This document shows, in pieces, positions 1-59,917 of a stretch of DNA of 64,000 bases. Source of the stretch: Patescibacteria group bacterium (GTDB taxonomy: Bacteria > Patescibacteriota > Patescibacteriia > UBA10025 > JAHIVO01); the NCBI GenBank assembly GCA_041660605.1, contig JBAZWB010000003.1, positions 82,680 to 146,679 on the forward strand. Reading direction: 5' to 3'. Position 1 is the first letter of the stretch. Each line of letters starts with the position of its first letter. The notes beneath the pieces were generated by a model that did no database searches, had not been told where the DNA came from, and saw nothing but the letters and a program-made list of their open reading frames with translations. The translations under genes and the position numbers were made by a program.

Positions 1-20
1 AAGAAAAAATTGATGATTCT

Positions 21-632
21 ATGCGATTAAACTCGCATCGGGAACCATTAATAGCGAGAAACTCAAGAGGATATCGAACCTTTGTTTTTTCTTATTGGCT
101 GATTGCGACTGTTGCTGCTTTTCTCCCTGCTATGATTGAGTTTTTTGAAACAAAATCATTCGAGTTTGGTAAAATCATTGGATTAATTGTTGATATTGTA
201 ATTAGTTTCGCTGTCTTCTACGCTCTATTTTTTATCATTCAAAAGGCAATCGTAAAAAAAGAATTTTTTATAAAACATAAAGAAAATATAAAAAAAATAG
301 TTATACTTTTATATATTATATCATTCCCACTAATTATATTTCTTGGTATATCCGCGTTCATCCCAATAATTGATTGGCTACTCATACTTGGTTTTATATA
401 TATAGTATTTTGGCTTTATAGAAATCGTTTAAAATATGGTTTAAAGTTTCCTCCCTATTTACTTTTATTAATAGTAGGATTTAGTTTATTTACTGTAATA
501 TATTTTATTAGCATTAAGCCTATACAATTACGTAGGGCATGCTACCGAGAGATTGGCTCCAATACAACTTATTATAACCTCTGTATTGATGGTAATTACA
601 ATTTTATCACAAAACATTTTCTAACTAAATAA
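21..632 (+). CDS. hypothetical polytopic membrane protein (very AT-rich)
   Basis: ORF of 203 aa with several hydrophobic segments. No family recognised. Confidence 0.4.
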   Translation: MRLNSHREPLIARNSRGYRTFVFSYWLIATVAAFLPAMIEFFETKSFEFGKIIGLIVDIVISFAVFYALFFIIQKAIVKKEFFIKHKENIKKIVILLYIISFPLIIFLGISAFIPIIDWLLILGFIYIVFWLYRNRLKYGLKFPPYLLLLIVGFSLFTVIYFISIKPIQLRRACYREIGSNTTYYNLCIDGNYNFITKHFLTK

Positions 633-635
633 CTT

Positions 636-890
636 ATGAAACACACTCTATTGTCTCAACTTACTGAGTATGCCAGAATTCCAATGACTAGTGCGGCAAA
701 AACTCAGATTGAAAATAATTTCACCGAAGTGGAAATAATTGAAGAATTGAAACATTTTAATGGTAATAGAATAATTTTACTAATGCAGACGCTGAATCCT
801 CAATTCAGAAAAGATACTTTAAAACCACCCCTTATCCAACCATTCAAGTGCGAAAATCAAGATTGTTATAAACTGTCGAATGAAGATTAA
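636..890 (+). CDS. hypothetical protein
   Basis: 84-aa ORF directly following the previous one. No motif recognised. Confidence 0.25.
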   Translation: MKHTLLSQLTEYARIPMTSAAKTQIENNFTEVEIIEELKHFNGNRIILLMQTLNPQFRKDTLKPPLIQPFKCENQDCYKLSNED

Positions 891-900
891 TATCAAGCCT

Positions 901-942
901 ACTAGCCACTAGTGGCTAATTACTAGGTACTAACTACTAACC
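901..942. repeat. CTAGT/CTAAC-rich palindromic repeat block (left flank of four-helix-bundle gene)
   Basis: Contains actagccactagtggctaattactaggtactaactactaacc. CCACTAGTGG is palindromic, and the motifs recur at 1312-1435. Confidence 0.6.
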
Positions 943-943
943 C

Positions 944-1297
944 ATGAACTCCTACAAAGAACTAACTGTTTGGCAAAAATCGATTGAACTGGTAACAGCA
1001 ATTTATAAACTGACTGAGCAATTTCCAAAATCTGAAATATTCGGATTAACTTCACAAATAAAAAGATCAGCAGTATCAATTCCGTCTAATATTGCCGAGG
1101 GTTTTAACAGGAAATCTCGTCTCGAATACGCCCATTTCATCAGAATTGCCTTTGGTTCAGGCGCAGAATTAGAAACTCAAATACTAATAGCTAAAAAACT
1201 AAAGTTTATTAATGAAACAAGCTATAATCAAATTGATGCTTTATTAACAGAAGTAATGAAAATGCTTAATAAATTAATCAGCGCATTAAAATCGTGA
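944..1297 (+). CDS. four-helix-bundle protein (TIGR02436-like, 23S rRNA intervening-sequence protein family)
   Basis: 117 aa. The pattern WQKSIELV...IPSNIAEGF...GSGAELETQ is characteristic of this small family. Confidence 0.75.
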   Translation: MNSYKELTVWQKSIELVTAIYKLTEQFPKSEIFGLTSQIKRSAVSIPSNIAEGFNRKSRLEYAHFIRIAFGSGAELETQILIAKKLKFINETSYNQIDALLTEVMKMLNKLISALKS

Positions 1298-1311
1298 AAG
1301 TATAATATCAA

Positions 1312-1435
1312 TCCACTAGTAACTAGTGGCCAATAAACTAATTACTAACTCACTAGGTACTAACAACTAGTGGCTAACAACTAACTAAACCAACCCCCAC
1401 TAGTTGCTAATGACTAGTGGCTAACCTACTAACAC
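1312..1435. repeat. CTAGT/CTAAC-rich repeat block (right flank)
   Basis: Multiple copies of actagtggctaa, cactaggtactaac and ccactagt. Same motif set as 901-942. Confidence 0.6.
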
Positions 1436-2815
1436 ATGATCTGGGCAAATTTCCTACACATCTACCAGCCACCCACGCAGAAAGAATACTGGGTGAAGAA
1501 AATAGCCAATGAAAGCTACCGCAAGCTAACTAAGGGGCTGAAAGCCAACCCCCAGGCCAGACTGACTCTGAATATTAATGCCGTGCTGACGGAACTTCTT
1601 GATAAATACAATTGTCGAGATGTTATTGCAGATATTAAATTTCTGGCTGAACGCGGACAAATTGAGCTGACGGGCAGTGCCAAATACCACCCTTTCCTGC
1701 CATTGATGCCAAAAGAGGAAATAGTCAGACAAATCGAATTAAATGCCAGAACAAATAAAAAATATTTTGGTAAAGTTTTTAATCCGCAGGGTTTTTTCCC
1801 GCCAGAAATGGCCTACAACCGCCAGGTCGGCGAAGCCATAGCCAAAGCCGGCTTCCGCTGGCTGATCCTGGACGAACTGGCCTATTCAGGAAATATTAAA
1901 GACATTGACTGGTCAAAAATTTACGAGCTCAAAAGCCTAAAAGATTTTTTTGTATTTTTCCGCGAACGGGAAGCCAGTTTCCGCATACTTTCGGCGGAAA
2001 TCGGCATGAGCGTTTTTTCCGGCAATATGCTGGTACAGCTGCTCGGCGACCGGATCAACCGGAATGAATACCTGATCACCGCTATGGACGGCGAAACATT
2101 CGGACACCACCGTCCAGGGCTGGAAGACCTGCTGTTTGACCTGTATAACACCGAGAAGCTCAAGCCGGCAACAATTTCTGAGTTGCCAAATCTTTTCCCA
2201 AAACGGCAAACTATCGATCCCCGGCCCTCTACCTGGGCGCTGATGAAAAAAGATATCGAGAGAAATACGCCATTTTCTCGCTGGAAAGAAAAAAACAATA
2301 CCATCCACACCATGCAATGGCAGTTGACCAACCTGGCCTTGAAAAGTTTCAAATCTATTAAAACAACCGATAAGCAATTTAAAAGAGTGCGACACAATCT
2401 GGACAAGGCTATTCACTCCGACCAATACTGGTGGGCTTCAGCCATGCCCTGGTGGAGCATTGAAATGATTGAGGCCGGAGCCAGGGATTTGAACGGCGTG
2501 GTGCAGGAATCTCCGGTACCTGAAAAAATTAAAAAGCTGGCAGAATCGCTCTACCACAAAATCATCTTCACCGCTTTTGATTGGCAGCGCTCGGGCAAGG
2601 TTGATGTGCTGGCAAAAAGCGCGGATGAGGATGTGACCCAACGCATTACTACGGAAATGCCTTACATACCCGAGGAGGAATTCAATAAAATCGTCGGCAA
2701 CCTGGAAAAACAGATGCTGGAAGCAGCCAAGGCCCGGGAATACGAACGGGCCGCGCAAATTCGCGATCGGGTAAATGAACTGAAAGAAAAAAAAGACCAA
2801 ATAACCAGAAAATAG
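1436..2815 (+). CDS. glycoside hydrolase family 57-like protein with C-terminal UVR domain
   Basis: N-terminus NFLHIYQPP resembles the GH57 HNHQP motif, and MDGETFGHH resembles the catalytic region. The C-terminal YERAAQIRDRVNELKEKK is a UvrB/UvrC-type UVR motif. Confidence 0.5.
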   Translation: MIWANFLHIYQPPTQKEYWVKKIANESYRKLTKGLKANPQARLTLNINAVLTELLDKYNCRDVIADIKFLAERGQIELTGSAKYHPFLPLMPKEEIVRQIELNARTNKKYFGKVFNPQGFFPPEMAYNRQVGEAIAKAGFRWLILDELAYSGNIKDIDWSKIYELKSLKDFFVFFREREASFRILSAEIGMSVFSGNMLVQLLGDRINRNEYLITAMDGETFGHHRPGLEDLLFDLYNTEKLKPATISELPNLFPKRQTIDPRPSTWALMKKDIERNTPFSRWKEKNNTIHTMQWQLTNLALKSFKSIKTTDKQFKRVRHNLDKAIHSDQYWWASAMPWWSIEMIEAGARDLNGVVQESPVPEKIKKLAESLYHKIIFTAFDWQRSGKVDVLAKSADEDVTQRITTEMPYIPEEEFNKIVGNLEKQMLEAAKAREYERAAQIRDRVNELKEKKDQITRK

Positions 2816-2818
2816 ACA

Positions 2819-3811
2819 ATGCCTACCAAGGGAGAAATAATGGAAAACGAACGCCTAGATGCGGTCAGGCAAATTGCCAAGGATATTATTTCCTGGGAAG
2901 ATTTTAAAATAATAAAAAAAATCCGCTTCGGCCCGCGCTATTTCATTGCCGAGGGGCTGAGGAACAAACAGAAGTGCGTTTTCAAGATCTGCCTGTACAC
3001 CGACTCCATAGACCACCTGACCAATGAAAAATTCTCCCGGGAAATATTATTCCTGAATTTCATCCAGTACTCCAAATTTCATCAGGTAAAATCGGTTACT
3101 CCTCGCATCCAGGCCTTCGGGCTGAAGCCACGCGCCTGGTATATGCGCGAATATTTAAGCGGCAAGTTTTATAATGTCAACGGCGGCAATATCAGATTCA
3201 AAAAAACATTTTTCACCAAACCGAACCTGGACTGGTTCGTAAAAACCTTTACCAACCTGCAAAGCATCAAACCAGCCGACCTGCCGGTAAATCTCAAAAA
3301 ATTTTTATACCGCCCGGATTTTACCAGGAACCTCTGGCGTTTTATCAGCCCCCACTGGCAAAAAATAGAGCAGTACATGAAATGGCCTGGCGTGTCCCGC
3401 CTTATTAAAATAGAATTTACCAAATACGCTTCAATATATAATACCGCTCCCCAGGTGCTGGCGCATCAGGAACCGTATTCCTGCCATTTCCTGCGCACGC
3501 AGCAGCGCCTGCATGTGATTGACTGGGAAAATATCGGCTGGTCCAACCCCAACCATGACCCGGTAGTACTCTGGATGCGGGCTTATAATGACCCTGGCTG
3601 GCAAAAAATACTTTACCAGAAATTCAGAAAAAAATACGCCGGTTATAAGGAATTTGACGACCTCTGGATTATCGAGGTGCTTATCCAGTCTGTTTTCAAT
3701 ATTATCAGTTATTATTTTTATGAAGATAAAAAAGACATTCAGGAGATGGTAAGCTTTTCAGATAAAAAAATAAGGGAAATTCTGACCAATACTTTTAAGC
3801 TCTATAATTAA
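2819..3811 (+). CDS. hypothetical protein, possible kinase-like (APH/CotS) fold
   Basis: 330 aa. HVIDWENIGWSNPNHD resembles the IDWE catalytic-loop region of APH-like phosphotransferases. Weak. Confidence 0.35.
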   Translation: MPTKGEIMENERLDAVRQIAKDIISWEDFKIIKKIRFGPRYFIAEGLRNKQKCVFKICLYTDSIDHLTNEKFSREILFLNFIQYSKFHQVKSVTPRIQAFGLKPRAWYMREYLSGKFYNVNGGNIRFKKTFFTKPNLDWFVKTFTNLQSIKPADLPVNLKKFLYRPDFTRNLWRFISPHWQKIEQYMKWPGVSRLIKIEFTKYASIYNTAPQVLAHQEPYSCHFLRTQQRLHVIDWENIGWSNPNHDPVVLWMRAYNDPGWQKILYQKFRKKYAGYKEFDDLWIIEVLIQSVFNIISYYFYEDKKDIQEMVSFSDKKIREILTNTFKLYN

Positions 3812-4686
3812 TGGCATACATCGACCTGCATACCCATTCAGTTTATTCCGAGGGTGCCTTGAGCTGCCGGGAGCTGCTGGGTGCCGCCAGTAAGTACGGG
3901 ATAAAAGTTCTCTCGCTGACCGATCATAATGTCATCGACGGCGTACCGGAAATAACCAGACTGGCGGAAGAGCATAAAATCAAAATAATCCCTGGCGTGG
4001 AAATTTATACCAGGCACCAAAATAAAGGCTTCCATTTGCTGGGCTATAATTTTAAGCCGGGAAAGACCGTACTGGCCGATTCTTTAATCGTCCTTCAGGC
4101 TGACCACCAGCAAAAAGTCAGGCAGACGGTGGCAGAACTGATCAAACAAGGCTTTATAATCAACGCTGAATCCCTATTCTCCGGGCCTTCGCGTTATTTA
4201 GGCGTGGTGCACCTCATCAAAGAATTGGAAAAAAATCCGGCCAACCTGAAAAAAATGGAAGTAGAACTGCCGCCCGCAGAAAATAATTACTTCGGAAAAG
4301 TCTATCATTATTTCGGCTACGGGCAGCCGGCTTATCTGCCGCAATCTGAATTGCCAACCGCGGAAGCAATTGATATCATTAAAAAAAGCGGCGGACTGGC
4401 CGTACTGGCGCATCCGGGCCAGCAACTCACTTTTGAAGAAGACCCAATCATTGGAGATTTGATAAAAAACCAGCTTGATGGCCTGGAAGTGCTCTCCCCT
4501 TACCATAACTGGCGGCAGGTAGAACATTACCAGAAAATGGCGCTGGATAATAATTTAATCATCACCGGCGGCAGCGATTATCATACTGACGTAGATATCT
4601 CAAAAAAGGAACTGATCAAGAAGCAATGGGATTATTTCAAAGTGCCTTACGAGATTTATAAAAACTTAAATAGAAACTTAAATTAA
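3811..4686 (+). CDS. PHP domain phosphoesterase
   Basis: N-terminus IDLHTHSVYS...LTDHN is the PHP histidine motif. The start overlaps the previous stop (ATGA). Confidence 0.75.
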   Translation: MAYIDLHTHSVYSEGALSCRELLGAASKYGIKVLSLTDHNVIDGVPEITRLAEEHKIKIIPGVEIYTRHQNKGFHLLGYNFKPGKTVLADSLIVLQADHQQKVRQTVAELIKQGFIINAESLFSGPSRYLGVVHLIKELEKNPANLKKMEVELPPAENNYFGKVYHYFGYGQPAYLPQSELPTAEAIDIIKKSGGLAVLAHPGQQLTFEEDPIIGDLIKNQLDGLEVLSPYHNWRQVEHYQKMALDNNLIITGGSDYHTDVDISKKELIKKQWDYFKVPYEIYKNLNRNLN

Positions 4687-4688
4687 AT

Positions 4689-6152
4689 ATGAAGAAAATA
4701 AAAGTCCTCTTTGTCTCTTCTGAACTGACGCCCCTGGCCAAAGTCGGCGGGCTGGGTGATGTGGCCGGCGCTCTGCCAAAAGCCCTGATCAAGCTTGGTG
4801 TGGATGTGCGCATTGCCATCCCCCGATACGGCGTTATTGACGCGCAGAAATACCCGCAGAAAAAAGTGGCGGAAAACGTCATAGTGCCTTTTAACGGAGC
4901 TAATGAGCCGGTGGCAATATTTGAAACTCCTCTGCCGGGCAGCGAAGTGCCTGTTTATCTGATTGATCATAAAAAATATCTGGGGGAGAACGGCATTTAT
5001 TTTGAAAAAGACGCCTCCTCCAGCGGCTCAAACCGCGAAGCGGAGCGTTTTACTTTTTTGGCCAGGTCCAGCGTGGGTTTTTTTGAAGCCCTGGACTGGT
5101 ATCCGGACATAGTGCACTGCCAGGACTGGCATGCCGGCATGATCCCGGTAATCCTAAAGGTGCTGGCAAAGAAAAATAAAAAACTGGGTAATATAAAAAC
5201 AATGCTGACCATCCATAATATGGAATACCAGGGCTGGTACCAGGCGGAAACTATTTTTAAGGCACTAGGATTTTCGGCCAGCGACTACCCAGCATTAAAA
5301 ATACAAAAAGATGGCCATATTTCCAGCCTGCAGCAGGCTATTCTGGCCAGCGACTATTTAAATACCGTCAGCCCGTCCTATGCCGAGGAAATTTTAACTC
5401 CAGAATACGGCGCCGGGCTGGAAAATGACCTGCTTACCCGGAAAAATGAGCTGGTCGGCATATTAAACGGCATTGACGTGGAAAGATTTGATCCGGAAAC
5501 AGATGAGAGCATTACGGCTAATTTTTCTGCCAAAGACCTATCCGGAAAAGCTAAATGCAAAGAAGGGCTGCAGCAAATATGCAATTTTAAAAAGGATAAA
5601 AATATCCCTGTCCTGGGAATTGTCTCACGCCTGGCCGACCAAAAAGGCATTGACTTGATTTATGAGGTAGCTGATAAATTAGCCCGGGAAAATATCCAGT
5701 TTGTCCTGCTCGGCACCGGCGATCCTAAGCTGGAAAAAATGATGGCGGAGATCAGTCATAAATATCCGCAAAAAATGTATGCCAAGCTGGAATTCAATGC
5801 CAAATTTGCCCAGGAAATCTATGCCGGTTCTGATATTTTTCTGATGCCCTCAAAATTCGAGCCCTGCGGCCTGGGCCAGATGATCGCCATGCGCTACGGC
5901 ACAGTACCGATCGTCCGGGCTACTGGCGGGCTGAAAGATACAGTCGCTGATTATCACGAAAATGACGGGGAAGGCTTTGTTCTTAAAAATTACGATTCCG
6001 CGGAATTCTTTGAGACAGTCAAGCGCGCTATTAATACTTTCCAGGACCAGAAAAAATGGTATAATATAGTTGAAAAAGACATTAAAAAAGATTTCTCCTG
6101 GAAATCTTCCGCCAAGAAATACATCCAGCTGTACAAAAAATTATCAAAATAA
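4689..6152 (+). CDS. glgA: glycogen/starch synthase
   Basis: The N-terminal KVGGLGDV motif is the GlgA GT5 signature. Length 487 aa. Confidence 0.9.
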   Translation: MKKIKVLFVSSELTPLAKVGGLGDVAGALPKALIKLGVDVRIAIPRYGVIDAQKYPQKKVAENVIVPFNGANEPVAIFETPLPGSEVPVYLIDHKKYLGENGIYFEKDASSSGSNREAERFTFLARSSVGFFEALDWYPDIVHCQDWHAGMIPVILKVLAKKNKKLGNIKTMLTIHNMEYQGWYQAETIFKALGFSASDYPALKIQKDGHISSLQQAILASDYLNTVSPSYAEEILTPEYGAGLENDLLTRKNELVGILNGIDVERFDPETDESITANFSAKDLSGKAKCKEGLQQICNFKKDKNIPVLGIVSRLADQKGIDLIYEVADKLARENIQFVLLGTGDPKLEKMMAEISHKYPQKMYAKLEFNAKFAQEIYAGSDIFLMPSKFEPCGLGQMIAMRYGTVPIVRATGGLKDTVADYHENDGEGFVLKNYDSAEFFETVKRAINTFQDQKKWYNIVEKDIKKDFSWKSSAKKYIQLYKKLSK

Positions 6153-6162
6153 AAGCCTGACA

Positions 6163-7122
6163 ATGACAGCAAAAAAAATCAAAGCTAAGACGTCCGCATG
6201 CAAAAGCGAAATTCGTATAGATGAAATTCATGACCGTTTTATTATTGTGGCGCCGAAAAGAAGCGGGCGTCCCCACGATGCCGCCCGGCACCAGGAGATT
6301 CCGGTCAAATCGAAGGACTGCCCATTCTGCCAGGAAGTAAAAAAACCCTCCCAGCCGGCGCTTTACCAGGTTGGTCCGGAACAGTGGTGGGAGATAAAAG
6401 TCATAAAAAATATTTTTCCGTTTGTCTCTGTTGACAACCCCAAGGCTTACGGCCATCAGGAAGTAATCATTGAAACCCCGCATCATAATAAAGAATTGGC
6501 GGAATTCGGCCAGGAACATATTTTCAGGCTGCTGCAAACCTACCAAGCCAGGACCAAAGCCCTGTCCGAAGATCCAAGGGTAAAATACATAATAATATTC
6601 AAAAACCACGGCGGTATTGCCGGCGCCTCGCTGGTGCACGCCCACTCCCAGATAATGGCGGCGGGATTTGTACCTAACCATATTATCAACAAACTGGCCA
6701 GGGCCAGGAAATACCAGATAAAAAACGGCTATTCATATTATCAGCACCTGGCGGTGGTGGAACCACGCGGTCCGCGAAAAATATATAATGACAAATACAT
6801 TTCCGTATTTTGCCCCTATGCCTCGTCATACAATTACGAAGCCTGGTTCGTGCCCAAACGACAGGTTGATAATATTACCCTTTTGAATGAAGGGGAACTG
6901 AAATCCCTGTCGCATGCGCTGAAGCTGGTCCTGCAAAAAATAAACAAGTTGAATCTCCCCTATAATTTTTACATGCACCAGACACTCACTGACCAAAACG
7001 AATATTTTTACCTGCGCGTCTGTCCGCGCCGCGACACCTGGGCAGGCGTGGAGCTCGGTTCGCGCGTCATTATCAATACCGTACCTCCAGAGGAAGCAGC
7101 AAAATTCTACCGGGGAAAATAA
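6163..7122 (+). CDS. GalT-like nucleotidyltransferase (galactose-1-phosphate uridylyltransferase / ADP-glucose phosphorylase family)
   Basis: Has the zinc motif CPFC and the HIT-like active site VHAHSQ. Start trimmed from 6070 to the first ATG after the glgA stop. Confidence 0.7.
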   Translation: MTAKKIKAKTSACKSEIRIDEIHDRFIIVAPKRSGRPHDAARHQEIPVKSKDCPFCQEVKKPSQPALYQVGPEQWWEIKVIKNIFPFVSVDNPKAYGHQEVIIETPHHNKELAEFGQEHIFRLLQTYQARTKALSEDPRVKYIIIFKNHGGIAGASLVHAHSQIMAAGFVPNHIINKLARARKYQIKNGYSYYQHLAVVEPRGPRKIYNDKYISVFCPYASSYNYEAWFVPKRQVDNITLLNEGELKSLSHALKLVLQKINKLNLPYNFYMHQTLTDQNEYFYLRVCPRRDTWAGVELGSRVIINTVPPEEAAKFYRGK

Positions 7123-7331
7123 ACGCGGTCCCTAAAAACAGACATAAATATAAAGTGCCTGTTTTTATATAAATAAAATTACCCTAAATTTGCATACTAA
7201 ATGATAACTTGATAGTCTTAAATTAATAGGAAATGCGACTTAAGTTCGCATAATAAGCAAATATTGCGTTAATTTACGAAAACACTACGTATAATAATGA
7301 GTTGTATGCTATGGCGAAAATGTTTTTTAAA

Positions 7332-7365
7332 AAGATAAAAGCCGCTGGGTAAAACCATACGGCTT
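7332..7365. terminator. bidirectional stem-loop terminator
   Basis: aaaagccgctgggtaaaaccatacggcttttgt, with T-runs on both strands. Lies downstream of minus-strand ORF 7406-7657. Confidence 0.4.
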
Positions 7366-7405
7366 TTGTGTCGGAATAATATTGATCAGCTGGAGTGTGG
7401 TTGGT

Positions 7406-7657
7406 TTAGAGTTTGATGAGATGCTTCGTGGCGTGGTCCTCCCGCGTGCTGGCGCAACCGGTTTGACCATCGGGTTGCGTCCAGATCTGATTCTGCTCAT
7501 CGAAACCTACAACCAAGGCGGTCTTCCCACTTAAATGAGGAAAACACTCATCAGTATACCGCACACGATCACCTGCCCGGAAACCAGCTATTTCTCCTTC
7601 TTGCGTAATGCTGACTTCCGATCCATCACCCTTTTGAATAAAGTGCTGCTTTCCCAT
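7406..7657 (-). CDS. hypothetical protein (GC-rich patch)
   Basis: 83 aa. Good SD (GGAAGGTG) upstream on the minus strand. Composition differs from neighbours. Confidence 0.45.
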   Translation of the reverse strand: MGKQHFIQKGDGSEVSITQEGEIAGFRAGDRVRYTDECFPHLSGKTALVVGFDEQNQIWTQPDGQTGCASTREDHATKHLIKL

Positions 7658-8026
7658 TAGTCACCTTCCTTTCTCAATAGAGATACTACGTAGCAATGAT
7701 GCGTCTCTTCGTTTTATCCACTTTAATCGCTCTATCGTTATAGAAAGAGCTGATTACACACAGTATCACCAAAACAACCGTATGTCAACCCTATGCATAG
7801 TGTGGATAAATTGAAAAGGATCCTAAATCAAGGTAAAATCATGAAAGAATTTCTCATTTGTTCCGCCCAAATTGTCTATTCATTCCAATGTTAGGCCACA
7901 GGCCAAATTATTACACTTCTATTCATAGACAACTTCAGATACCCCGAAACGTTAAAGAAAAATAATTTTCAATAATAAAAGCCTCTAGTCTGCCGACCAG
8001 AAGCTTTTTGGTTGCGCCATTGAAGG

Positions 8027-11577: not shown

Positions 11578-12474
11578 ATGGCAACTTACACGCTGGGTCT
11601 AGATGTCGGCGGCACTAAAATTCAGGCTGGCCTGGTTAACCAGCAAAATCGGATTATTGCCAGCAAGAAATTTATCATAAATAACCACAATAAAAAAACC
11701 GTGCTAACCGACATTTTGGCTAGCAGCGGCGGTTTATTTACTTCCCAGGTCAGAGGCATCGGCATCGGCATCACTGGACAGGTAAAAAACAAATCCGGCA
11801 TAGTAGTCAGCAGCCCAAACCTCCCGGCTGACTGGCATAATGTGCCTTTGAAACAGATACTAGAAAAAAGATTCAGGGTACCGGTTCATCTGGATAATGA
11901 CGCCAATTGCGTTGCCCTGGCTGAGGCGGTTGTCGGGGAAGGGAAGAAATATAATACCTGCCTGACGATAACGATCGGTACGGGGATCGGCGCGGGGCTG
12001 GTAATCAATAAAAAGATTTATCACGGCGCTCAGGGCATAATTGAATTCGGGCACACGACCATCGCCACCGGCTCGCCGGTCTGCAGCTGCGGGCGCTACG
12101 GGCACTTCGAAGCGCTGGTTTCCGGTTCAGCAGCGGTAAAAATTTATAAAAAAATCACCAAACAGACCAAAACCCCGTATCAGATAGAAGATGAAGCAGC
12201 ACACAACAAAAAAAATGCCCTGAAAGTATTTCAGCTTATGTCATGCCACCTGGCCATTGGATTGGCTAACGCGATTCACAGCTACAATCCCGATATCATC
12301 ATTCTTGGCGGCGGGATGTCGAAGGTCGGATTGCTTATTAATACCGCCATAAATTCCGTTAATGATAAAATAATATATCCGGAGTTGAAAAAAACTAAGA
12401 TTGTCGCTTCTAAGCTGAAATATCAGGCTGGCGTGATCGGTGCAGCCATTATTTGTTCTAAACAATACAGATAA
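11578..12474 (+). CDS. ROK family glucokinase
   Basis: N-terminus LGLDVGGTKIQ plus the ROK zinc motif CSCGRYGHFEA. Confidence 0.8.
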   Translation: MATYTLGLDVGGTKIQAGLVNQQNRIIASKKFIINNHNKKTVLTDILASSGGLFTSQVRGIGIGITGQVKNKSGIVVSSPNLPADWHNVPLKQILEKRFRVPVHLDNDANCVALAEAVVGEGKKYNTCLTITIGTGIGAGLVINKKIYHGAQGIIEFGHTTIATGSPVCSCGRYGHFEALVSGSAAVKIYKKITKQTKTPYQIEDEAAHNKKNALKVFQLMSCHLAIGLANAIHSYNPDIIILGGGMSKVGLLINTAINSVNDKIIYPELKKTKIVASKLKYQAGVIGAAIICSKQYR

Positions 12475-15119: not shown

Positions 15120-16226
15120 TTACTGCTTGATCGGCATTATTATATACACGTAAGTATTGTCACTTTTCGGCCGCAGCAGTCCAGGCGTGGTATTGCTGCT
15201 CATTTCAAAAACGCATTCTTCGTCATTAATATTCTGCAGCCCATCAAGCAGATAACGGTAGTTAAAAATAATATTATTATCTTCGCCTTCCAGATCAGCC
15301 TCCTGTCTGGCTTCGCTTTCGCCTATCTGTAAATTATTGGCAGTCACTAATACCTCTTTTGCCCCAACGCTTAATTTCAGCATAATATCGTTACCGCCCG
15401 GCTTGCAAAAAAGGCTCGCTCTCTTAACCGTGTTAATGAAACTTTTCGTGTTCACTACCGCGCTAGTCCGGTGTTCCTTGGGAATAATTTGCTGATAATC
15501 GGGATATTTGCCTTCAATAATTCTCGAGGATAAATTGCATTCCCCAAAAGAAAATAAAATCTGATTCTCATTGACGGAAATAGTCACAGACTCTCCTTCC
15601 TCGCTGCCCAGAATCCTGATTAACTCCTGTATGGTACGCAGGGGAACAATGGCATTGTAAGGCTGGCTAACGTTTTTTCCCAGATCGATTTCCTTCTCCG
15701 CCAAACGGTAACTGTCGGTTGAAACCAGGGTAAGCTTATTGTCCGCAAATTGGAAATAGACCCCGCTGATTTCCGGGCGCGTTTCATCGATAGCCACAGC
15801 AAAAGAAACGGTCGATAAGGCGTCTTTCAACTGTTTTGTTTTGATCTGATAATTGCTGGCGGAAGCAACCTCGGGAATAAGAGGAAATTCTGAAGATTCC
15901 ACCCCTTTCATAACCGTTTTTGAGCCTTTTCCCTCGATTTTTAGGCTTTGATTATCCAATTCAATCGCCACGTTTTCTTTTGGCAGTAGGCTGATATAGT
16001 CGCTTAATGTTTTTGCCTGCACGGTGAACGACCCTTCTCTTTCTACCTTCCCCCTGACTTTACAAATAACGCCAATTTCCAGATTTGTGGTCATTAAAAT
16101 AATGCCTCCCTTTTCAGCTTTAATTAAAACGTTGTTTAAAATTGGCAGGGAAATATTTTTACTGGCAATATGACTGACGAGCTGCAGCCCCCTGTTTAAA
16201 TTTTCCTGTGTACATATTACTTTCAT
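15120..16226 (-). CDS. dnaN: DNA polymerase III beta sliding clamp
   Basis: 368 aa, N-terminus MKVICTQENLNRGLQ, positioned directly downstream of dnaA. Confidence 0.9.
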   Translation of the reverse strand: MKVICTQENLNRGLQLVSHIASKNISLPILNNVLIKAEKGGIILMTTNLEIGVICKVRGKVEREGSFTVQAKTLSDYISLLPKENVAIELDNQSLKIEGKGSKTVMKGVESSEFPLIPEVASASNYQIKTKQLKDALSTVSFAVAIDETRPEISGVYFQFADNKLTLVSTDSYRLAEKEIDLGKNVSQPYNAIVPLRTIQELIRILGSEEGESVTISVNENQILFSFGECNLSSRIIEGKYPDYQQIIPKEHRTSAVVNTKSFINTVKRASLFCKPGGNDIMLKLSVGAKEVLVTANNLQIGESEARQEADLEGEDNNIIFNYRYLLDGLQNINDEECVFEMSSNTTPGLLRPKSDNTYVYIIMPIKQ

Positions 16227-16490
16227 ATTTATTTATTTATTAAATTAACTATATATATAGTAACGGAGTGGATAAGTGGAAAAGTTTTTTTAATGTTGCT
16301 TTTGGCTCGATGAAGCTTGGGTATAGTGAAGGAGTAAATTTATTTACAGTGTGGAGGAATCCTTAAGTGGGAGCTGGTTAGCGGTGGATCAATTGGGAGT
16401 AATTTTATTATTTTTTTCGTGTTGAATATATTTTATGGAAATATGCGCTTATGCTCCACATCTTTTACCAGCCTTATCCCCAAGCTAAAT
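16227..16490. other. candidate oriC segment (dnaA-dnaN intergenic, AT-rich with DnaA-box-like 9-mers)
   Basis: AGTGGATAA at 16267-16275 matches 8 of 9 of the TGTGGATAA consensus. GGTGGATCA at about 16383. AT-rich tracts. Confidence 0.4.
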
Positions 16491-17858
16491 TTATTTATTA
16501 TATAGGCGTTCCCGTATCAGGTTTATATCCTGTCTGATCTTTTCGTCTTCCTCAATGGCTTTTTTAATTTTCTGGCAGGCATGCATAGCTGTAGTGTGGT
16601 CCCGGCCGCCTAATTCCAGGCCGATAGCCGGGAAAGAGCATTTTGCTTCTTCGCGCATCAGAAACATAATAATCTGTCGCGGGGTAACCAGCTCCTTTTT
16701 GCGCCCGCTGCCCAGCAAGTTTTCTATAGAAGTATCAAAAAATTCAGAAACCGTAGAAATTATTTGTTTGGTAGTGATAGCGCCGTCTCTTTTGCGGTAG
16801 TTATTTAAGCTGGAAATTATATTTTTAACGGATTCCACGGTCGGCTCGGTTTTATTCAGCTGGTGGTAGGCAATAATCCTGTTCAGGGCGCCCTCAAGCT
16901 CGCGTACGTTGCTCTGGATGGAGCTGGCGATCAAAGCCATCACTTCCCTGGATAATCCGCATTTTTTCTCCTCGCATTTTGAGTTTAAGATAGCCACCCT
17001 GGTCTCGTAATCCGGCTGAGCGACATCGGCGATCATGCCCCATTCGAAACGGGAAATAAGCCTGTTTTCCAGAGCGGGAATGGCTTTAGGAGGGCGGTCG
17101 GAGCTTATGACTATCTGTTTGTTTTGCTGATGCAGGGCGTTGAAAGTATGGAAAAACTCTTCCTGAGTGCCCTCTTTCCCGGCCAGGAACTGGATGTCGT
17201 CAATCAATAGGAGGTCGGCCGCCCGATAAAAATCCTTGAAACTATTGGCGTTTCCCCGGGTAATGGCCCGGATAAATTCATCAGTGAATTTTTCGCACGT
17301 TACGTAAATTACTTTTTTATTTGGGGATTTTTTCAGCACTTCGTGGGCTACGGCCTGCAATAAATGGGTTTTTCCCAGCCCAGCTCCGCCGTATAAAAAT
17401 AGGGGGTTATAGACTTCACCCGGCTTCTGCGCTACTGCCTGGCAGGCGGCATGAGCCAGTTCATTACCCTTGCCAACCACAAAATTTTCAAAGGTGTACT
17501 GGCTGATCAGCCCGAAACCATTTTTCTTCCCGCCGTTTATTTCCGGAACTGCTGTGATTTGCTGAACAGGTTGGCCGGCGCTTATTTTTTCGTGAGAAAC
17601 TGGTTTTTTTGAAGATTCGACTATGTATGATATTTCTTTGACTTTATGGTCGGAAATATTATCGAGCGCCTTGGCTATTTCCTTATGGTATTTATTTTCC
17701 AGCCAGGTTTTGGTAAATGAATTTGGGGCGCCAATTACAACATTATCTCCTTCATACGAAGAGATGAAAGTATTTTTGAACCAGGTAGTGAAATTTGCCT
17801 TGCTAATCGAGAGTTCAAGTTCTCCTAATGCCGCCTGCCACAATTGTTCTTTGTCCAT
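16491..17858 (-). CDS. dnaA: chromosomal replication initiator DnaA
   Basis: Walker A GGAGLGKTHLL, AAA+ domain, C-terminal DNA-binding helix. 455 aa. Confidence 0.92.
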   Translation of the reverse strand: MDKEQLWQAALGELELSISKANFTTWFKNTFISSYEGDNVVIGAPNSFTKTWLENKYHKEIAKALDNISDHKVKEISYIVESSKKPVSHEKISAGQPVQQITAVPEINGGKKNGFGLISQYTFENFVVGKGNELAHAACQAVAQKPGEVYNPLFLYGGAGLGKTHLLQAVAHEVLKKSPNKKVIYVTCEKFTDEFIRAITRGNANSFKDFYRAADLLLIDDIQFLAGKEGTQEEFFHTFNALHQQNKQIVISSDRPPKAIPALENRLISRFEWGMIADVAQPDYETRVAILNSKCEEKKCGLSREVMALIASSIQSNVRELEGALNRIIAYHQLNKTEPTVESVKNIISSLNNYRKRDGAITTKQIISTVSEFFDTSIENLLGSGRKKELVTPRQIIMFLMREEAKCSFPAIGLELGGRDHTTAMHACQKIKKAIEEDEKIRQDINLIRERLYNK

Positions 17859-18056
17859 AAAATACGCAGTGAAAAATAAAGCGTACTATATATAGTATCA
17901 CAAATATTATTAATACAGAACACTTAATGTGTAGATTGTTTGTGCATAAGCTGTTGATAGCATGAGGACAATTCTTTTTGATTGACCTTAGGCGGATTAA
18001 TTGATATACTGGAGTAACTTCAAGCAATGGTTTTTTAGTATTCATTTTTGTAATAT

Positions 18057-18194
18057 ATGCCAAAAAGAACGTATCAGCCGAAGAAAAGACACAGACAGAG
18101 GGTCCATGGATTTAGGAAGAGGATGCGCACTAAAAATGGGCGGAAAGTGCTGGCCAGGAGAAGGAAAAGAGGACGCCGAATGCTTTCGCACTAA
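18057..18194 (+). CDS. rpmH: 50S ribosomal protein L34
   Basis: Hand-translated, not in the ORF track: [45 protein letters not shown]. Confidence 0.9.
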
Positions 18195-18198
18195 ATTT

Positions 18199-18543
18199 AT
18201 GCTACGCCGGCAATTTAGGATTACCAAAGAGGAGGACTGGGCCAGGCTGCATCGTTATGGCCGGACGGCGTTTTCACCGCAGTTAATATTGAAAATTTTG
18301 AAAAATCGTCTTCCGGAATCCCGTTTTGGCTTTTCTATCAGCACAAAAACAGTAAAGAAAGCGACTAAACGAAACCGCCTGAAACGCCAGCTGCGCGCCA
18401 ACATTGAAAATATGCGGACGAAGATTGTGCCCGGCTATGACGTTATTTTTATTATCAGGCCGGCGCTGCAGGAGTTGAGGCAGGCGGAGTTTCGTGATTT
18501 TTTGCTAAAATTGCTTAAAAAAGCCAGATTAATAGAACCCTAG
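18199..18543 (+). CDS. rnpA: ribonuclease P protein component
   Basis: FGFSISTKTVKKATKRNRLKRQLR is the RnpA signature. Trimmed to the ATG after the rpmH stop. Confidence 0.85.
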   Translation: MLRRQFRITKEEDWARLHRYGRTAFSPQLILKILKNRLPESRFGFSISTKTVKKATKRNRLKRQLRANIENMRTKIVPGYDVIFIIRPALQELRQAEFRDFLLKLLKKARLIEP

Positions 18544-18544
18544 A

Positions 18545-18784
18545 ATGATAAATAAAATATTTTTAGCCATCATCAGAGTTTATCAAAAAACGATTTCGCC
18601 GGATCATGGAATTTTTGCCTATAAGCACCCATACGGTTACTGCCGCTTCCAGCCGACCTGCTCAGAATATGCATACCAGGCTATAGAAAAATATGGCTTG
18701 ATTAAGGGCTTTTTTCTCGCTACCAAACGGGTTTTAAAATGCAATCCATTTAATAAAAATATCGGAGTTGATCAATTAAAATAA
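18545..18784 (+). CDS. yidD: membrane protein insertion efficiency factor YidD
   Basis: 79 aa with conserved cysteines and Y..C..GYD-like pattern. Canonical position after rnpA. Confidence 0.8.
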   Translation: MINKIFLAIIRVYQKTISPDHGIFAYKHPYGYCRFQPTCSEYAYQAIEKYGLIKGFFLATKRVLKCNPFNKNIGVDQLK

Positions 18785-19557
18785 TGATAAGTAATATTTA
18801 TAATTTGGTATTATTTGAGCCACTTTTCAATGGCTTGGTTTTTATTTACAATTTCATTCCGGACTTAGGAGTGGCGATAATAATTTTAACCTTAATTATC
18901 AAGGTAATATTATACTTCCCTTCCCGCTCTTCAATCAAATCCCAGAAATTACTGCAACAGGCCCAGCCGAAGCTCAAAATTCTGCAGGATAAATTTAAAA
19001 ATAATAAAGAAGAGCTGGGACGCCAGATGATGAAATTTTATAAGGAAAACAAGGTAAATCCGTTCTCCTCATGCCTGCCATTGCTCATACAATTGCCGAT
19101 TTTAATCGCCCTTTACCGGGTTTTTCTGGTAGCCGCCCAGACAGACGCCACCACCCATATTCTGGTCATAGATCAGCTGAAGCATTTGTATGAACCCCTG
19201 AGAAATATTTTCACTACCAAGGCGATAAACCCCACTTTTTTGGGGATTTTTGACCTTTCACAGAGTAAAAATTATCTGTTTGCCATATTAGCCGGCGCGG
19301 CGCAATTCTGGCAGACCAGAATGCTACAGGCAAAAATGCCTCCGAAACTGCCTGGTGCCAAGGATGAGAGCATGACGGCGGGCATAAACAAGCAAATGAT
19401 GTATTTTATGCCCATCATTACCGTATTTTTTGGCATTCAATTCCCCGCCGGTCTGACCCTTTACTGGCTGGTTTCCACGTTATTTACGGTGGCTCAGCAG
19501 TACTATATATTCAAGAAAGAAAATGATAAAAAGGATAAGGAAGTCGTTTCCCCATGA
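18784..19557 (+). CDS. yidC: membrane protein insertase YidC (short form)
   Basis: Oxa1-family hydrophobic core and a lysine-rich C-terminal tail. Synteny with rnpA-yidD. Confidence 0.85.
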   Translation: MISNIYNLVLFEPLFNGLVFIYNFIPDLGVAIIILTLIIKVILYFPSRSSIKSQKLLQQAQPKLKILQDKFKNNKEELGRQMMKFYKENKVNPFSSCLPLLIQLPILIALYRVFLVAAQTDATTHILVIDQLKHLYEPLRNIFTTKAINPTFLGIFDLSQSKNYLFAILAGAAQFWQTRMLQAKMPPKLPGAKDESMTAGINKQMMYFMPIITVFFGIQFPAGLTLYWLVSTLFTVAQQYYIFKKENDKKDKEVVSP

Positions 19558-37186: not shown

Positions 37187-38740
37187 ATGAACAACCAAAA
37201 GTTTTTTCTCTACGCCCGCAAGTCCACCGACGTAGAAGATAAGCAAGTTTTGAGCATTGAAGCGCAGATCGTTGAATTGCGCACCTTTGCTAAAAAGGAA
37301 AGTTTAACAATAGTAGAGGAATTAGTGGAAAAGAAATCGGCCAAAGTGCCCGGACGCAAGATATTCAACTCAATGTTGGACAGAATAGCGAAAGGCGAAG
37401 CGCAAGGAATTGTGAGCTGGCACCCTGATAGATTGGCGCGCAATTCGGTGGATGGCGGGCGAATCATTTATCTGCTGGATACTGGCCAGCTTGCGGCTTT
37501 GAAATTCCCCCAATTCTGGTTTGAATCAACGCCGCAAGGAAAGTTTATGCTAAATATTGCCTTCGGACAGAGCAAATACTATGTGGATTCGCTATCAGAG
37601 AATGTAAAACGCGGATTGCGCCAAAAAGCCAGACGAGGAGAGTATTCGGGCATAGCCCCGCTTGGCTACATCAACGATTTACGTACCAAAACTGTGGTGG
37701 TAGACAAAACGCAGGCGAAAATCGTGAGCCAGGCGTTTGAACTGTACGCCCAAGGCAATTCTCGACTAGAGGATATTTCCACCTTTTTGGCCCAACATAA
37801 TATAACCTCGCGCAATGGCAAACCACTAAAACGAGACAGAATTTCTTTTATCCTTTCCAATCCTTTTTATGTTGGTTTCTTTACTTATGCCAAGGAATTA
37901 TATGAAGGCAAGCACCAGCCAGTCATCTCAAAGAAAATTTTTGACCAAGTGCAAATAATATTGAAACAAAAGGGCAGACCGCACCACAAAACCAAGAACG
38001 AGCCGCAACCCTATTGCGGTCTGCTGCGGTGTAACACCTGCGGAATGGGTATAACTGGCGAATACAAGACAAAGCACCAAAAGAACGGTAACGAACACAA
38101 TTATATTTACTACCACTGCACGAAAAAGAATAAGGCCATCAAATGTCACGAGCCATGTATTCGCCAAGAATCATTGGATGAACAAATTACTCCTTTACTG
38201 CAAAAATTTTCTTTGAGATCTGATTGGGCGGACAGCTTGTTACATCAACTAGAGCAAGACACTTCCGAGTCCGCCCACTCCTCTGTCGCTTTTGTTCAAG
38301 AGACGGAAAACACTATCCAAGGTATCGAAACCAAGCTCCAGCGACTTTTAGACAGCTATCTGGAGCAAGATATTGACCGAGACGCGTACCTGGAGAAGAA
38401 GGCTGGCCTCTTAGGAGAGAAAAAGTCCCTCACGGAGAAAATGACCCGTCTTGAACAAAAGCGGACTGGCTGGGTCGAACCGATGCGGAAATGGATAAAT
38501 ACGGCAGCAGAGCTGCCGAAAATCGCGCGGGAGAGCGACCTTTTTCTCCGAAAGGTCGCGGCCAAAGAAATCTTTGGCTCGAACCTCGTCCTGGGTTTCG
38601 GGAAAGTCCGCCCTATCCCAGAATTTCGCCCACAAAAACACTGGTTTGCCATATCCAGCGCCAGAGAGAAAATCGGTAAATTTTTGGAAAGTATGATAGT
38701 GGTAGCCCCACGGGGAATCGAACCCCGATTACCACATTGA
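37187..38740 (+). CDS. large serine recombinase (resolvase/integrase family)
   Basis: Catalytic LYARKSTDVEDKQ (Ser in the YxRxS motif), a recombinase domain, zinc ribbon CGLLRCNTCG and a coiled coil. The 3-prime end reads into the tRNA-Glu gene. Confidence 0.88.
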   Translation: MNNQKFFLYARKSTDVEDKQVLSIEAQIVELRTFAKKESLTIVEELVEKKSAKVPGRKIFNSMLDRIAKGEAQGIVSWHPDRLARNSVDGGRIIYLLDTGQLAALKFPQFWFESTPQGKFMLNIAFGQSKYYVDSLSENVKRGLRQKARRGEYSGIAPLGYINDLRTKTVVVDKTQAKIVSQAFELYAQGNSRLEDISTFLAQHNITSRNGKPLKRDRISFILSNPFYVGFFTYAKELYEGKHQPVISKKIFDQVQIILKQKGRPHHKTKNEPQPYCGLLRCNTCGMGITGEYKTKHQKNGNEHNYIYYHCTKKNKAIKCHEPCIRQESLDEQITPLLQKFSLRSDWADSLLHQLEQDTSESAHSSVAFVQETENTIQGIETKLQRLLDSYLEQDIDRDAYLEKKAGLLGEKKSLTEKMTRLEQKRTGWVEPMRKWINTAAELPKIARESDLFLRKVAAKEIFGSNLVLGFGKVRPIPEFRPQKHWFAISSAREKIGKFLESMIVVAPRGIEPRLPH

Positions 38741-38774
38741 AAGCGTGGTGTCCTAACCGTTAGACGATAGGGCC
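38700..38774 (-). tRNA. tRNA-Glu (anticodon UUC)
   Basis: Hand-folded. Acceptor GGCCCTA/TGGGGCT with 2 G-U pairs, anticodon arm CCACG-CTTTCAA-TGTGG, T-arm CGGGG-TTCGATT-CCCCG, encoded CCA. Close to E. coli tRNA-Glu. Confidence 0.8.
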
Positions 38775-58788: not shown

Positions 58789-58790
58789 TT

Positions 58791-59915
58791 ATGCAAAACA
58801 TTTTAATATTAAAATTTCCTTATTCATCATTATTCGGCGGCGGCGAGAAGCACACGCTTATTTTGGTAGAGCAGATGCAGCAGAAAGGCTTTAATTTTTT
58901 CCTGGTTTCTTCCTGCCCGGTCCTGCTGAAAGAATTCAAATCGCGCCGCTGGTTCGCTAAAAAAGCCTGGGCCGGCCGTGAACCGGTTTCCAAGGGCACT
59001 CTTCTGCTCTGGCCGCTGGTGGCGCCGCTGGCTTTTTTTAATTTATTTTTAATTTTACTGCAGTACCGGTTCGGAAAAAAAGTAAAAATACTATACTGTC
59101 TGTCGCTGACGGAAAAAATACTGGCCACGGTGCCGGCCCGGATGCTGGGCATGAAAGTATTCTGGGTGGAACATGTGACCTTTGAACGCTGGCTGACTAA
59201 AAATCCGCTGAAGATATTTTATCGTTTTTTTTCCCGATTCGCCAACGTAGTGGCCATTTCCCAGGTCATCAAACGGCAGCTGATAGAAAAGATAAAAGTG
59301 CGACCGGAAAACATTACAGTTATTTACAATGGCATAGATCTGCGTCAGTTTAGCATGAAGCGCTTCCGCTGGGAGAAAGGCGCACGCTTCAACATCGGCT
59401 GCGTGGCCAGGCTGGAAAAGGAAAAAGGCATCGAGTTTCTGATCCAGGCCATAAAAATTGTCAGAGAGTTTGTGCCTTTTGTCAGGCTGATCATTGTCGG
59501 CGAGGGCGGTGAAAAAAAGAAGCTGGTTTGGCTGTCAGAGAGAATGAACCTGAAAGAAATAATTCAGTGGGTGGGGCATCAGCAAGAGATTGATAAATGG
59601 TATGGTTACTTTGATGTCTATGCCCTGCCTTCGGTTAAGCGAGAATCATTTGGCATTACTCTGGTAGAAGCGATGGCTAGCGGAGTGCCGGTGGTCGGGT
59701 CCAACCTCGGCGGCATACCGGAAATAATTGATAATAAGGTAAACGGGCTTTTGGCCGAGCCGGGCTCCAGTCGTGATCTGGCCGATAAGCTATTATATTT
59801 ATTCAATAACCGCGGCGAGGCCAGGGAAATGGTGCTCCAGGCCCGCGATAAGGTGGAAAAAAACTTCAGCGTGGAACGCATGATCAGGGATTTTTACATA
59901 TTATTAAAAAAGTAA
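58791..59915 (+). CDS. GT4 family glycosyltransferase
   Basis: EX7E-type C-terminal motif FGITLVEAMASGVPVV. GT-B fold length. Confidence 0.85.
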   Translation: MQNILILKFPYSSLFGGGEKHTLILVEQMQQKGFNFFLVSSCPVLLKEFKSRRWFAKKAWAGREPVSKGTLLLWPLVAPLAFFNLFLILLQYRFGKKVKILYCLSLTEKILATVPARMLGMKVFWVEHVTFERWLTKNPLKIFYRFFSRFANVVAISQVIKRQLIEKIKVRPENITVIYNGIDLRQFSMKRFRWEKGARFNIGCVARLEKEKGIEFLIQAIKIVREFVPFVRLIIVGEGGEKKKLVWLSERMNLKEIIQWVGHQQEIDKWYGYFDVYALPSVKRESFGITLVEAMASGVPVVGSNLGGIPEIIDNKVNGLLAEPGSSRDLADKLLYLFNNRGEAREMVLQARDKVEKNFSVERMIRDFYILLKK

Positions 59916-59917
59916 AT

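Follow-up and report, generated by a model that had tools for sequence, protein, structure and literature searches.

Textbook accounts give bacteria two ways of making glycogen, one through GlgC and GlgA and the other through GlgE, and the question raised by the locus described here is how a glycogen synthase, GlgA, might be supplied with its glucosyl donor where no GlgC is encoded nearby. The locus lies in a 64-kb stretch of DNA (hereafter the window) from contig JBAZWB010000003.1 of a Patescibacteria group bacterium. The Patescibacteria, which account for a large share of bacterial diversity, are tiny, uncultured and thought to be severely limited in energy and genes. Five close-set genes on the + strand occupy positions 1436-7122 of the window, confirming their placement in the original prediction, which had been made from the sequence of the window without database searches. 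They are the downstream half of a conserved Patescibacteria α-glucan (glycogen) operon, in which the gene for a GalT/HIT-type enzyme shows genetic coupling to one for a retaining glycosyltransferase (here GlgA, of glycosyltransferase family 5, GT5; elsewhere a member of family 4, GT4) and to another that resembles sugar kinase genes. Chance can hardly account for this layout, since the gene order repeats in dozens of independent Patescibacteria contigs.

The first of the five + strand genes (1436..2815) encodes a glycoside hydrolase of family 57 (GH57) with a C-terminal UvrB/UvrC motif, hereafter GH57-UVR (459 aa; Pfam GH57 9e-31, UVR 3e-8). It is followed by a gene for a small-molecule kinase of the aminoglycoside phosphotransferase (APH)/choline kinase fold (2819..3811; 330 aa), assigned from a weak Pfam APH match (7e-4) together with an AlphaFold2 (AF2) model and Foldseek, and by a gene for a PHP metal-dependent phosphoesterase of the TrpH/YciV type (3811..4686; 291 aa; Pfam PHP 2.5e-14). 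Next come a GT5 glycogen/starch synthase, GlgA1 (4689..6152; 487 aa; TIGR02095 532 bits), which is the GlgA copy coupled to the GalT-like gene, and a class-I GalT/HIT-type nucleotidyltransferase (6163..7122; 319 aa; Pfam GalP_UDP_transf and DUF4931_N). The open reading frame (ORF) of the latter opens at a TTG at 6070, and the gene proper is 6163-7122, which has 100% identity and coverage with the public protein P0001. The gene identities originally predicted are correct by Pfam, NCBIfam and AF2/Foldseek, and the tight packing is likewise seen, the four junctions being, in order, a 3-nt gap, an overlap of 1 nt, a 2-nt gap and a 10-nt gap.

The GalT-like protein has relatives in 13 GTDB genomes and on 80 metagenome contigs, giving 87 loci after removal of duplicates. 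The gene order is kept in the 13 GTDB genomes, complete chromosomes among them (e.g. CP060223.1, CP181398.1), and in the metagenome loci. Neighbours were counted over 65 loci with at least 1.5 kb of upstream sequence, 39 GlgA-type loci with at least 4.5 kb and 33 with at least 8 kb. GlgA lies immediately upstream of the GalT-like gene, on the same strand, in 44/65 loci (68%), and across 51 loci a median of 4 nt separates the stop codon of GlgA from the ATG of the GalT-like gene. This near translational fusion of the two genes across the lineage argues for a functional link of the GalT-like protein with the nucleoside diphosphate (NDP)-glucose donor. The APH-like kinase gene is found just before GlgA in 32 of the 39 clusters (82%), and the PHP gene is present in 11 of the 39 (28%). 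Where the kinase and the PHP protein had originally been listed side by side without weighting, the counts place the kinase in the core, whereas the PHP protein is rejected as a core component and is an accessory. The complete 1.08-Mb Nomurabacteria chromosome CP060223.1 (L016) has the same order, and its wider neighbourhood likewise matches that of the window, with YebC and RuvC upstream and tyrosyl-tRNA synthetase, a penicillin-binding protein and DnaN downstream.

The loci in which GlgA is not the upstream neighbour are informative about which partners are constant. In four of them (L009, L017, L038, L070) the GalT-like gene is preceded by one for a GT4 glycosyltransferase, accompanied in L009 by an APH kinase; a PfkB sugar kinase gene takes the upstream position in L042 and L043, and an ATP-grasp protein gene in one locus. 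Over GlgA and non-GlgA loci together, a retaining GT-B glycosyltransferase and a kinase are thus the constant partners of the GalT-like enzyme, which appears to be a general glycosyltransferase partner in these bacteria. The GT4/kinase runs before the GalT-like gene span 5503-10921 in L009, 255-10077 in L017, 9029-10921 in L042 and 7183-9267 in L043; the GT4 run of L017 also holds a trehalase/GH63-like hydrolase gene, and a ROK gene follows immediately downstream in that locus.

We next consider what the GalT-like protein itself resembles. Its HxHSQ active site (HAHSQ) is invariant among 34 homologues at H159, H161, S162 and Q163 and aligns with the HSHSQ of 1Z84, and the zinc site C53, C56 and H108 is kept in at least 90% of sequences, its CPFC aligning with the CPFC of At5g18200. 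With the single sequence as query, the best match in the PDB is 1Z84/2H39 (At5g18200, the Arabidopsis ADP-glucose phosphorylase) at E 1.7e-36, compared with 3e-21 for the GalT of Pyrobaculum and 6e-14 for that of E. coli. The ranking is the same with the family profile among references drawn from PDB sequences only (At5g18200 213 bits, Pyrobaculum GalT 148, E. coli GalT 102, human GALT 91), and both GalT equivalog cut-offs are missed (TIGR00209, 82.9 bits against 102.1; NF008724, 99.3 against 448). The protein is therefore nearer to the plant ADP-glucose phosphorylase than to Leloir GalT, as had been suspected. The plant enzyme is described as catalysing ADP-Glc + Pi <-> ADP + Glc-1-P, where Pi is inorganic phosphate and Glc-1-P glucose 1-phosphate, and its Km for ADP-Glc is given as about 7 uM (PMC4136846, citing McCoy 2006). 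We conclude that the GalT-like protein would act as a member of this enzyme group, with a covalent His-nucleoside monophosphate (His-NMP) intermediate and Glc-1-P as one substrate. It resembles ADP-glucose phosphorylase; we do not claim membership of that family, since nucleotide and acceptor specificity cannot be read from sequence. That the enzyme handles the NDP-glucose of its coupled glycosyltransferase we consider likely.

The enzymes that would ordinarily be looked for beside a GlgA or a GalT were sought in the same DNA. In line with the original statement that GlgC is absent from the window, tblastn with E. coli queries returned no GlgC/GalU (NTP_transferase) homologue in the 64 kb, the GlgC query having been validated with Pfam (230 bits to NTP_transferase); a search extended to related loci totalling 1.24 Mb likewise gave no GlgC-like gene. 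Neither GlgB of glycoside hydrolase family 13 (GH13) nor GalK, GalE, phosphoglucomutase (PGM) or GlgP was detected among the window ORFs of at least 150 aa scanned with Pfam, a set from which antisense ORFs nested in identified genes were left out. Company in the form of galK and galE would have pointed to a Leloir role for the GalT-like gene; tblastn with E. coli queries, which had no positive control, detected neither gene in the window or in the related loci (97 loci, 1.24 Mb).

The kinase belongs to a tiny, lineage-specific family, with only 47 homologues in 5.8 billion proteins. Its Pfam APH (PF01636) score of 19.8 bits lies under the gathering score of 23.2. The AF2 model, with a predicted local distance difference test (pLDDT) score of 93, gives as top Foldseek matches (probability 1.0, TM 0.5-0.6) APH(4), APH(9), Mph, homoserine kinase, methylthioribose (MTR) kinase and choline kinase (ChoK). 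The hallmarks of the APH fold are present, namely the β3 Lys, the αC Glu and the Mg-binding Asp of the IDxE motif; K56, E75, H216, E218 and D235 are invariant, and the IDWEN motif is intact. The catalytic loop of the clade to which the window belongs reads H216-Q-E218-P-Y-x-x-H223, not the canonical HGDxxxxN, and other related clades have H-Y-E. Since this loop change is strictly conserved in the family, it suggests altered chemistry and not decay. In further clades the kinases at the same position have the canonical HGDxxxxN...IDF/W, which indicates that the kinase is a core component and presumably active, the Asp-to-Glu change being a peculiarity of the clade. Searches of PDB sequences with the single kinase sequence, the family profile and the canonical homologue from L016 returned insignificant or generic matches only. 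We propose that the substrate of the kinase is a sugar, with phosphorylation possibly at the anomeric position. Some loci (L011 6461-8555; L037 6466-8556; L047 1235-3403; L048 6260-8389; also L060 and L073) have a tandem pair of APH-like kinase genes between GH57-UVR and GlgA, or possibly one gene for a fused double kinase of about 700 aa.

Since window position 1 corresponds to position 8566 of the source contig locus (L014; contig of 184,930 bp), the genes directly upstream could also be identified. On the same strand lie a glycoside hydrolase of family 15 (GH15, 360 aa), a second glycogen synthase, GlgA2 (496 aa; TIGR02095 489 bits), and a shorter GH57, GH57b (406 aa). The model nearest to GH15 is "oligosaccharide amylase", with a score under its cut-off, and a cupin-type phosphoglucose isomerase (PGI) gene lies farther upstream of the three. 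Among the 33 loci with sufficient flanking sequence GlgA2 is present in 31, GH57b in 30, GH57-UVR in 26 and GH15 in 9. The order of the whole operon is thus GH15, GlgA2, GH57b, an insertion, GH57-UVR, APH-like kinase, (PHP), GlgA1 and GalT-like. The module had been described as a reduced glycogen pathway, and this does not hold: with GH15, a second GlgA and a second GH57 directly upstream, the five genes do not form a complete pathway of that kind, and that reading of them was rejected.

The insertion is confined to this genome, where low-GC ORFs split GH57b from GH57-UVR; in relatives GH57b abuts GH57-UVR. It comprises three small + strand ORFs (203, 84 and 117 aa; window 21..1297, L014 8586-9862), delimited by GC, gene calls and Pfam, with a GC content of 0.35 against about 0.46 around them. 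The 117-aa ORF encodes a bAvd/23S-rRNA-intervening-sequence four-helix protein, and its gene is flanked by CCACTAGT/ACTAGTGG palindromes at 906-915, 1313-1329, 1366-1373 and 1397-1420; these palindromes number 8 copies in the window against 0.69 expected. The segment looks like a small insertion, and the three ORFs lie outside the pathway.

The remaining enzymes of the module can be placed with varying precision. The AF2 model of GH57-UVR (pLDDT 87) has a GH57 core of about 395 aa, and its top Foldseek matches are all GH57 enzymes, which share a (β/α)7 barrel, comprising the T. litoralis 4-α-glucanotransferase, branching enzymes and amylopullulanases (TM about 0.6, 14-19% identity, Foldseek E 1e-15 to 1e-17); it stands no nearer to one of these three groups than to the others. 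The residues H8, Q11, P12, E124, D218 and E220 are invariant in 34 homologues, and in alignment E124 falls on the region of 1K1W and 3N8T that holds the nucleophile, so that E124 and D218 are candidates for nucleophile and acid/base, respectively; the GH57 identity thus also survives a check at the active site. Matches to the branching-enzyme models NF041133 and NF041566 (35.5 and 29.5 bits against 1000 and 920) cover about 70 residues. With GH13 GlgB absent and a GH57 following each GlgA, the economical inference is that at least one of the GH57 enzymes branches glucan.

GlgA1 matches TIGR02095 over its full length (532 bits, cut-off 328), with Glyco_transf_5 at 1.7e-71 and Glycos_transf_1 at 1.9e-18. 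By manual alignment, it presumably has Phe at the position of the adenine-stacking Tyr355 of the E. coli enzyme, which is suggestive only. The PHP domain scores 54 bits in Pfam against a threshold of 26, and the protein scores 130 bits with NF041577 (3',5'-nucleoside bisphosphate phosphatase; cut-off 400) and 107 bits with NF047791 (RNase RNM; cut-off 375). Its relatives in the PDB are 9ETK, 3E0F, 2YB1 and 7UG9. It belongs to the TrpH/YciV group, relatives of pAp phosphatase and RNase AM, and is present in some clades only.

How might these parts work together? That the kinase, the GalT-like enzyme and the glycosyltransferase form a sugar-activation route feeding GlgA is our preferred reading; the specific mechanism set out next we hold tentatively, with confidence somewhat short of even. 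In such a route the kinase would form a hexose 1-phosphate, in the simplest case by the reaction glucose + ATP -> Glc-1-P + ADP. The GalT-like enzyme, acting via a covalent His161-NMP, would then turn Glc-1-P into NDP-glucose for GlgA1, most probably as a reversed ADP-glucose phosphorylase (ADP + Glc-1-P -> ADP-Glc + Pi; EC 2.7.7.36). GlgA1 and GlgA2 would lengthen the glucan, and one or both GH57 enzymes would branch or remodel it. Breakdown would be hydrolytic, with GH15 and GH57 freeing glucose, the ROK kinase converting it to glucose 6-phosphate and the neighbouring PGI passing it to glycolysis; the genes for GH15, PGI and ROK share one neighbourhood. Each glucose stored would then cost one ATP net, not two, and GlgC would be dispensable. 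The APH fold includes the anomeric kinases Mak and MtnK, which act on their own sugars. There is also a precedent for the genetic pairing, the APH-fold C1-kinase NahK being encoded beside GalT2 in the bifidobacterial galacto-N-biose/lacto-N-biose (GNB/LNB) operon (bioRxiv 10.64898/2026.09.13.751320). The full scheme, in which an APH-fold glucose 1-kinase, a reverse ADP-glucose phosphorylase and the pull of GlgA would together give GlgC-independent, one-ATP and possibly PGM-independent glycogen synthesis, we consider rather unlikely in all its particulars.

Several points weigh against this scheme. The equilibrium of the phosphorylase reportedly lies toward ADP + Glc-1-P, by 5- to 40-fold according to textbook values and to figures said to be those of McCoy in 2006, and the overall reaction Glc-1-P + glucan -> glucan+1 + Pi is feasible only at Pi/Glc-1-P below about 4, its equilibrium being that of glycogen phosphorylase (about 3.6). 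The route would therefore need a high, insulated pool of Glc-1-P; the conserved kinase makes the model coherent in this respect, because an ATP-driven anomeric kinase would supply such a pool. That kinase carries Glu for the catalytic Asp in the window clade, where altered chemistry or inactivity is possible, and PDB sequence searches and Foldseek gave no likeness to NahK, Mak or MtnK beyond the fold. The GalT-like protein has 29% identity to At5g18200 over the full length, a level at which nucleotide and acceptor specificity are not established. One related locus (L083) has a GalU-like gene, and a genome-wide absence of glgC, pgm and glgP is for this reason not to be assumed. The PHP protein has no place in the model.

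The same observations can be read in other ways. The GalT-like enzyme could be an exchange transferase (NDP-sugar + Glc-1-P <-> NDP-Glc + sugar-1-P) tapping another pool, e.g. UDP-GlcNAc from GlmU; GlmU and the GalT-like enzyme would then replace GalU/GlgC, with GlgA and GT4 using UDP- or ADP-glucose. An exchange of this kind sidesteps the unfavourable equilibrium of reverse phosphorolysis and is how the bifidobacterial NahK/GalT2 pathway runs. The class-I GalT fold and motifs are present, the second-best structural relative, Pyrobaculum GalT, is a true uridylyltransferase, and the linkage of the GalT-like gene to GT4 as well as GlgA fits too. We nevertheless judge this account unlikely: the protein is nearer to ADP-glucose phosphorylase than to any uridylyltransferase and misses the GalT equivalog cut-offs, the cluster has no epimerase or partner NDP-sugar enzyme, and GlgA1 scores as an ADP-glucose type. 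Equally, ADP-Glc + Pi -> ADP + Glc-1-P could be the working direction, either as a safety valve for excess ADP-glucose made by a GlgC encoded elsewhere or, with GlgA reversed, as one half of a glycogen phosphorylase made up of two enzymes, with ADP as the catalytic carrier. In vivo Pi/Glc-1-P ratios favour phosphorolysis, no GlgP was found among the window ORFs scanned with Pfam, and the nearest relative with known biochemistry has been demonstrated to work in the direction of phosphorolysis only (PMC4136846). ADP-glucose build-up is toxic in cyanobacteria lacking GlgA (PMC7242066). The degradative direction is likewise an improbable explanation, however, given that linkage to GT4 and a kinase in non-GlgA clades fits sugar activation better, that the cluster already has the hydrolytic GH15 and GH57, that no GlgC was found in the 1.24 Mb of flanking DNA and that bacterial GlgA enzymes are not known to run backwards to any appreciable extent.

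The position of the kinase gene, always directly after GH57-UVR, raises the further idea of a GlgE-like route, with the kinase as a maltokinase, GH57-UVR polymerising maltose 1-phosphate, and GlgA and the GalT-like protein forming a separate branch. The maltokinase Pep2/Mak does fall in the same fold family, and GH57 enzymes, being of the retaining type, might in principle accept a glycosyl phosphate as donor. This is very unlikely, in that the PDB matches show no sequence or fold preference for Mak, the cluster has neither TreS nor a GH13 GlgE, no GH57 is known to use maltose 1-phosphate, and the near fusion of GlgA with the GalT-like gene would be left unexplained. Least probable of all, to the point of being very hard to credit, is an ordinary glycogen operon with a Leloir GalT as a chance neighbour. 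IMG does call the homologues UDPglucose--hexose-1-phosphate uridylyltransferase, and the HxHxQ and zinc motifs are common to GalT; on the other side stand the adjacency to GlgA in 44/65 loci at a median gap of 4 nt, the missed TIGR00209 and NF008724 cut-offs, a closest relative that is not a GalT, and the lack of galK/galE hits in the window or the 97 loci, albeit with queries that had no positive control.

Returning to sugar activation by the kinase and the GalT-like enzyme as the preferred reading, it is useful to set the module beside known systems. With At5g18200 (1Z84, 2H39) the GalT-like protein shares the class-I GalT/HIT fold, the HxHSQ motif, the CPFC/His zinc site and a full-length alignment (319 against 351 aa). 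The plant enzyme is a stand-alone, cytosolic protein described as degradative (PMC4136846), whereas here the gene is coupled to GlgA and a kinase, and this coupling suggests a biosynthetic use. Like the GlgC-GlgA-GlgB pathway, the module has a GT5 GlgA of the ADP-glucose type in an operon with glucan-remodelling enzymes; unlike it, the window and related loci show no NTP_transferase and no GH13 GlgB beside the GlgA, and the module has two GlgA, two small GH57, an APH-like kinase and a GalT-like enzyme. The succession of a sugar-1-kinase and HIT/GalT-type nucleotidyl transfer recalls the Leloir pathway and the bifidobacterial GNB/LNB pathway (NahK, GalT2 and GalE), from which the module differs in having no epimerase and in directing its output to polymer synthesis, not catabolism. 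BlGalT2 moreover belongs to class II of the GalTs and shares <15% identity with class I (bioRxiv 10.64898/2026.09.13.751320), whereas the GalT-like protein of the module is class I-like. GH57-UVR shares its fold and the motifs of nucleophile Glu and acid/base Asp with the T. thermophilus and T. kodakarensis branching enzymes and the T. litoralis 4-α-glucanotransferase; compared with GH57 branching enzymes (about 520 aa) it falls short by about 120 aa, carries a UvrB/C hairpin at its C terminus and shows 14-19% identity. Mycobacterial Pep2/Mak offers a parallel as an anomeric sugar kinase of the APH/eukaryotic-like kinase (ELK) fold in an α-glucan gene cluster, from which our case differs in showing no specific similarity and in having no TreS or GlgE in the cluster.

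To our knowledge, ADP-glucose phosphorylase has been without a clear physiological role since the 1960s; if the proposed route is correct, this would be the first. The conserved operon offers a candidate, open to test, for a third and less costly way of supplying the glucosyl donor beside GlgC and GlgE. It bears on how carbon storage is scored in reconstructions of Patescibacteria, where "GlgA without GlgC" may now pass as an incomplete pathway, and it offers enzymes for ATP-sparing in vitro synthesis of ADP-glucose and α-glucan. Should a glgC lie elsewhere in the genome, the finding would shrink to an ADP-glucose recycling accessory of an ordinary pathway. In the literature searched we found no description of this module or of the glgC status of these lineages. 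A keyword search of the available part of a 2024 Chem Rev survey of prokaryotic α-glucan enzymes returned no HIT/GalT route (PMC11046441), and a paper on the Candidate Phyla Radiation (CPR) mentions "starch or glycogen" genes only in passing (PMC5220378).

The homologues of the GalT-like protein carry the labels Patescibacteria, Kerfeldbacteria or Nomurabacteria. Several metagenome-assembled genomes that bear the cluster (L002, L007-L011) are titled "uncultured Gammaproteobacteria bacterium", and one 2-kb contig is assigned to Zixiibacteriota; these records are probably mislabelled or contaminated.

Downstream of the module, at 11578..12474 on the + strand, lies the gene for a ROK-family, glucokinase-like sugar kinase (Pfam ROK 4e-63; TIGR00744 170 bits, under the cut-off). 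In 12/37 loci a ROK gene follows the GalT-like gene within 10 kb, immediately so in L017 and L063; it is a loosely conserved neighbour, which probably passes hydrolytically freed glucose into glycolysis. Promoter and terminator scans of window positions 1-8000 gave counts at the level of shuffled sequence. The glycogen module lies about 10 kb from oriC: the replication-origin neighbourhood, with dnaN (-), dnaA (-), rnpA (+) and yidC (+), occupies 15120-19557 of the window, and the minimum of the cumulative GC skew falls at about 14-16 kb. At 57352-62858 there is a surface-glycan cluster encoding a Wzx-like flippase, a GT4, an O-antigen-ligase-like protein and a PMT_2 glycosyltransferase, which add to the demand for nucleotide sugars in DNA that has no NTP_transferase gene. 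Finally, at 37187-38774, a large serine recombinase (517 aa; Resolvase, Recombinase and Zn_ribbon_recom domains) is encoded by a gene whose 3' end coincides in part with a tRNA-Glu gene running on the other strand, an overlap that may mark an integrated element.

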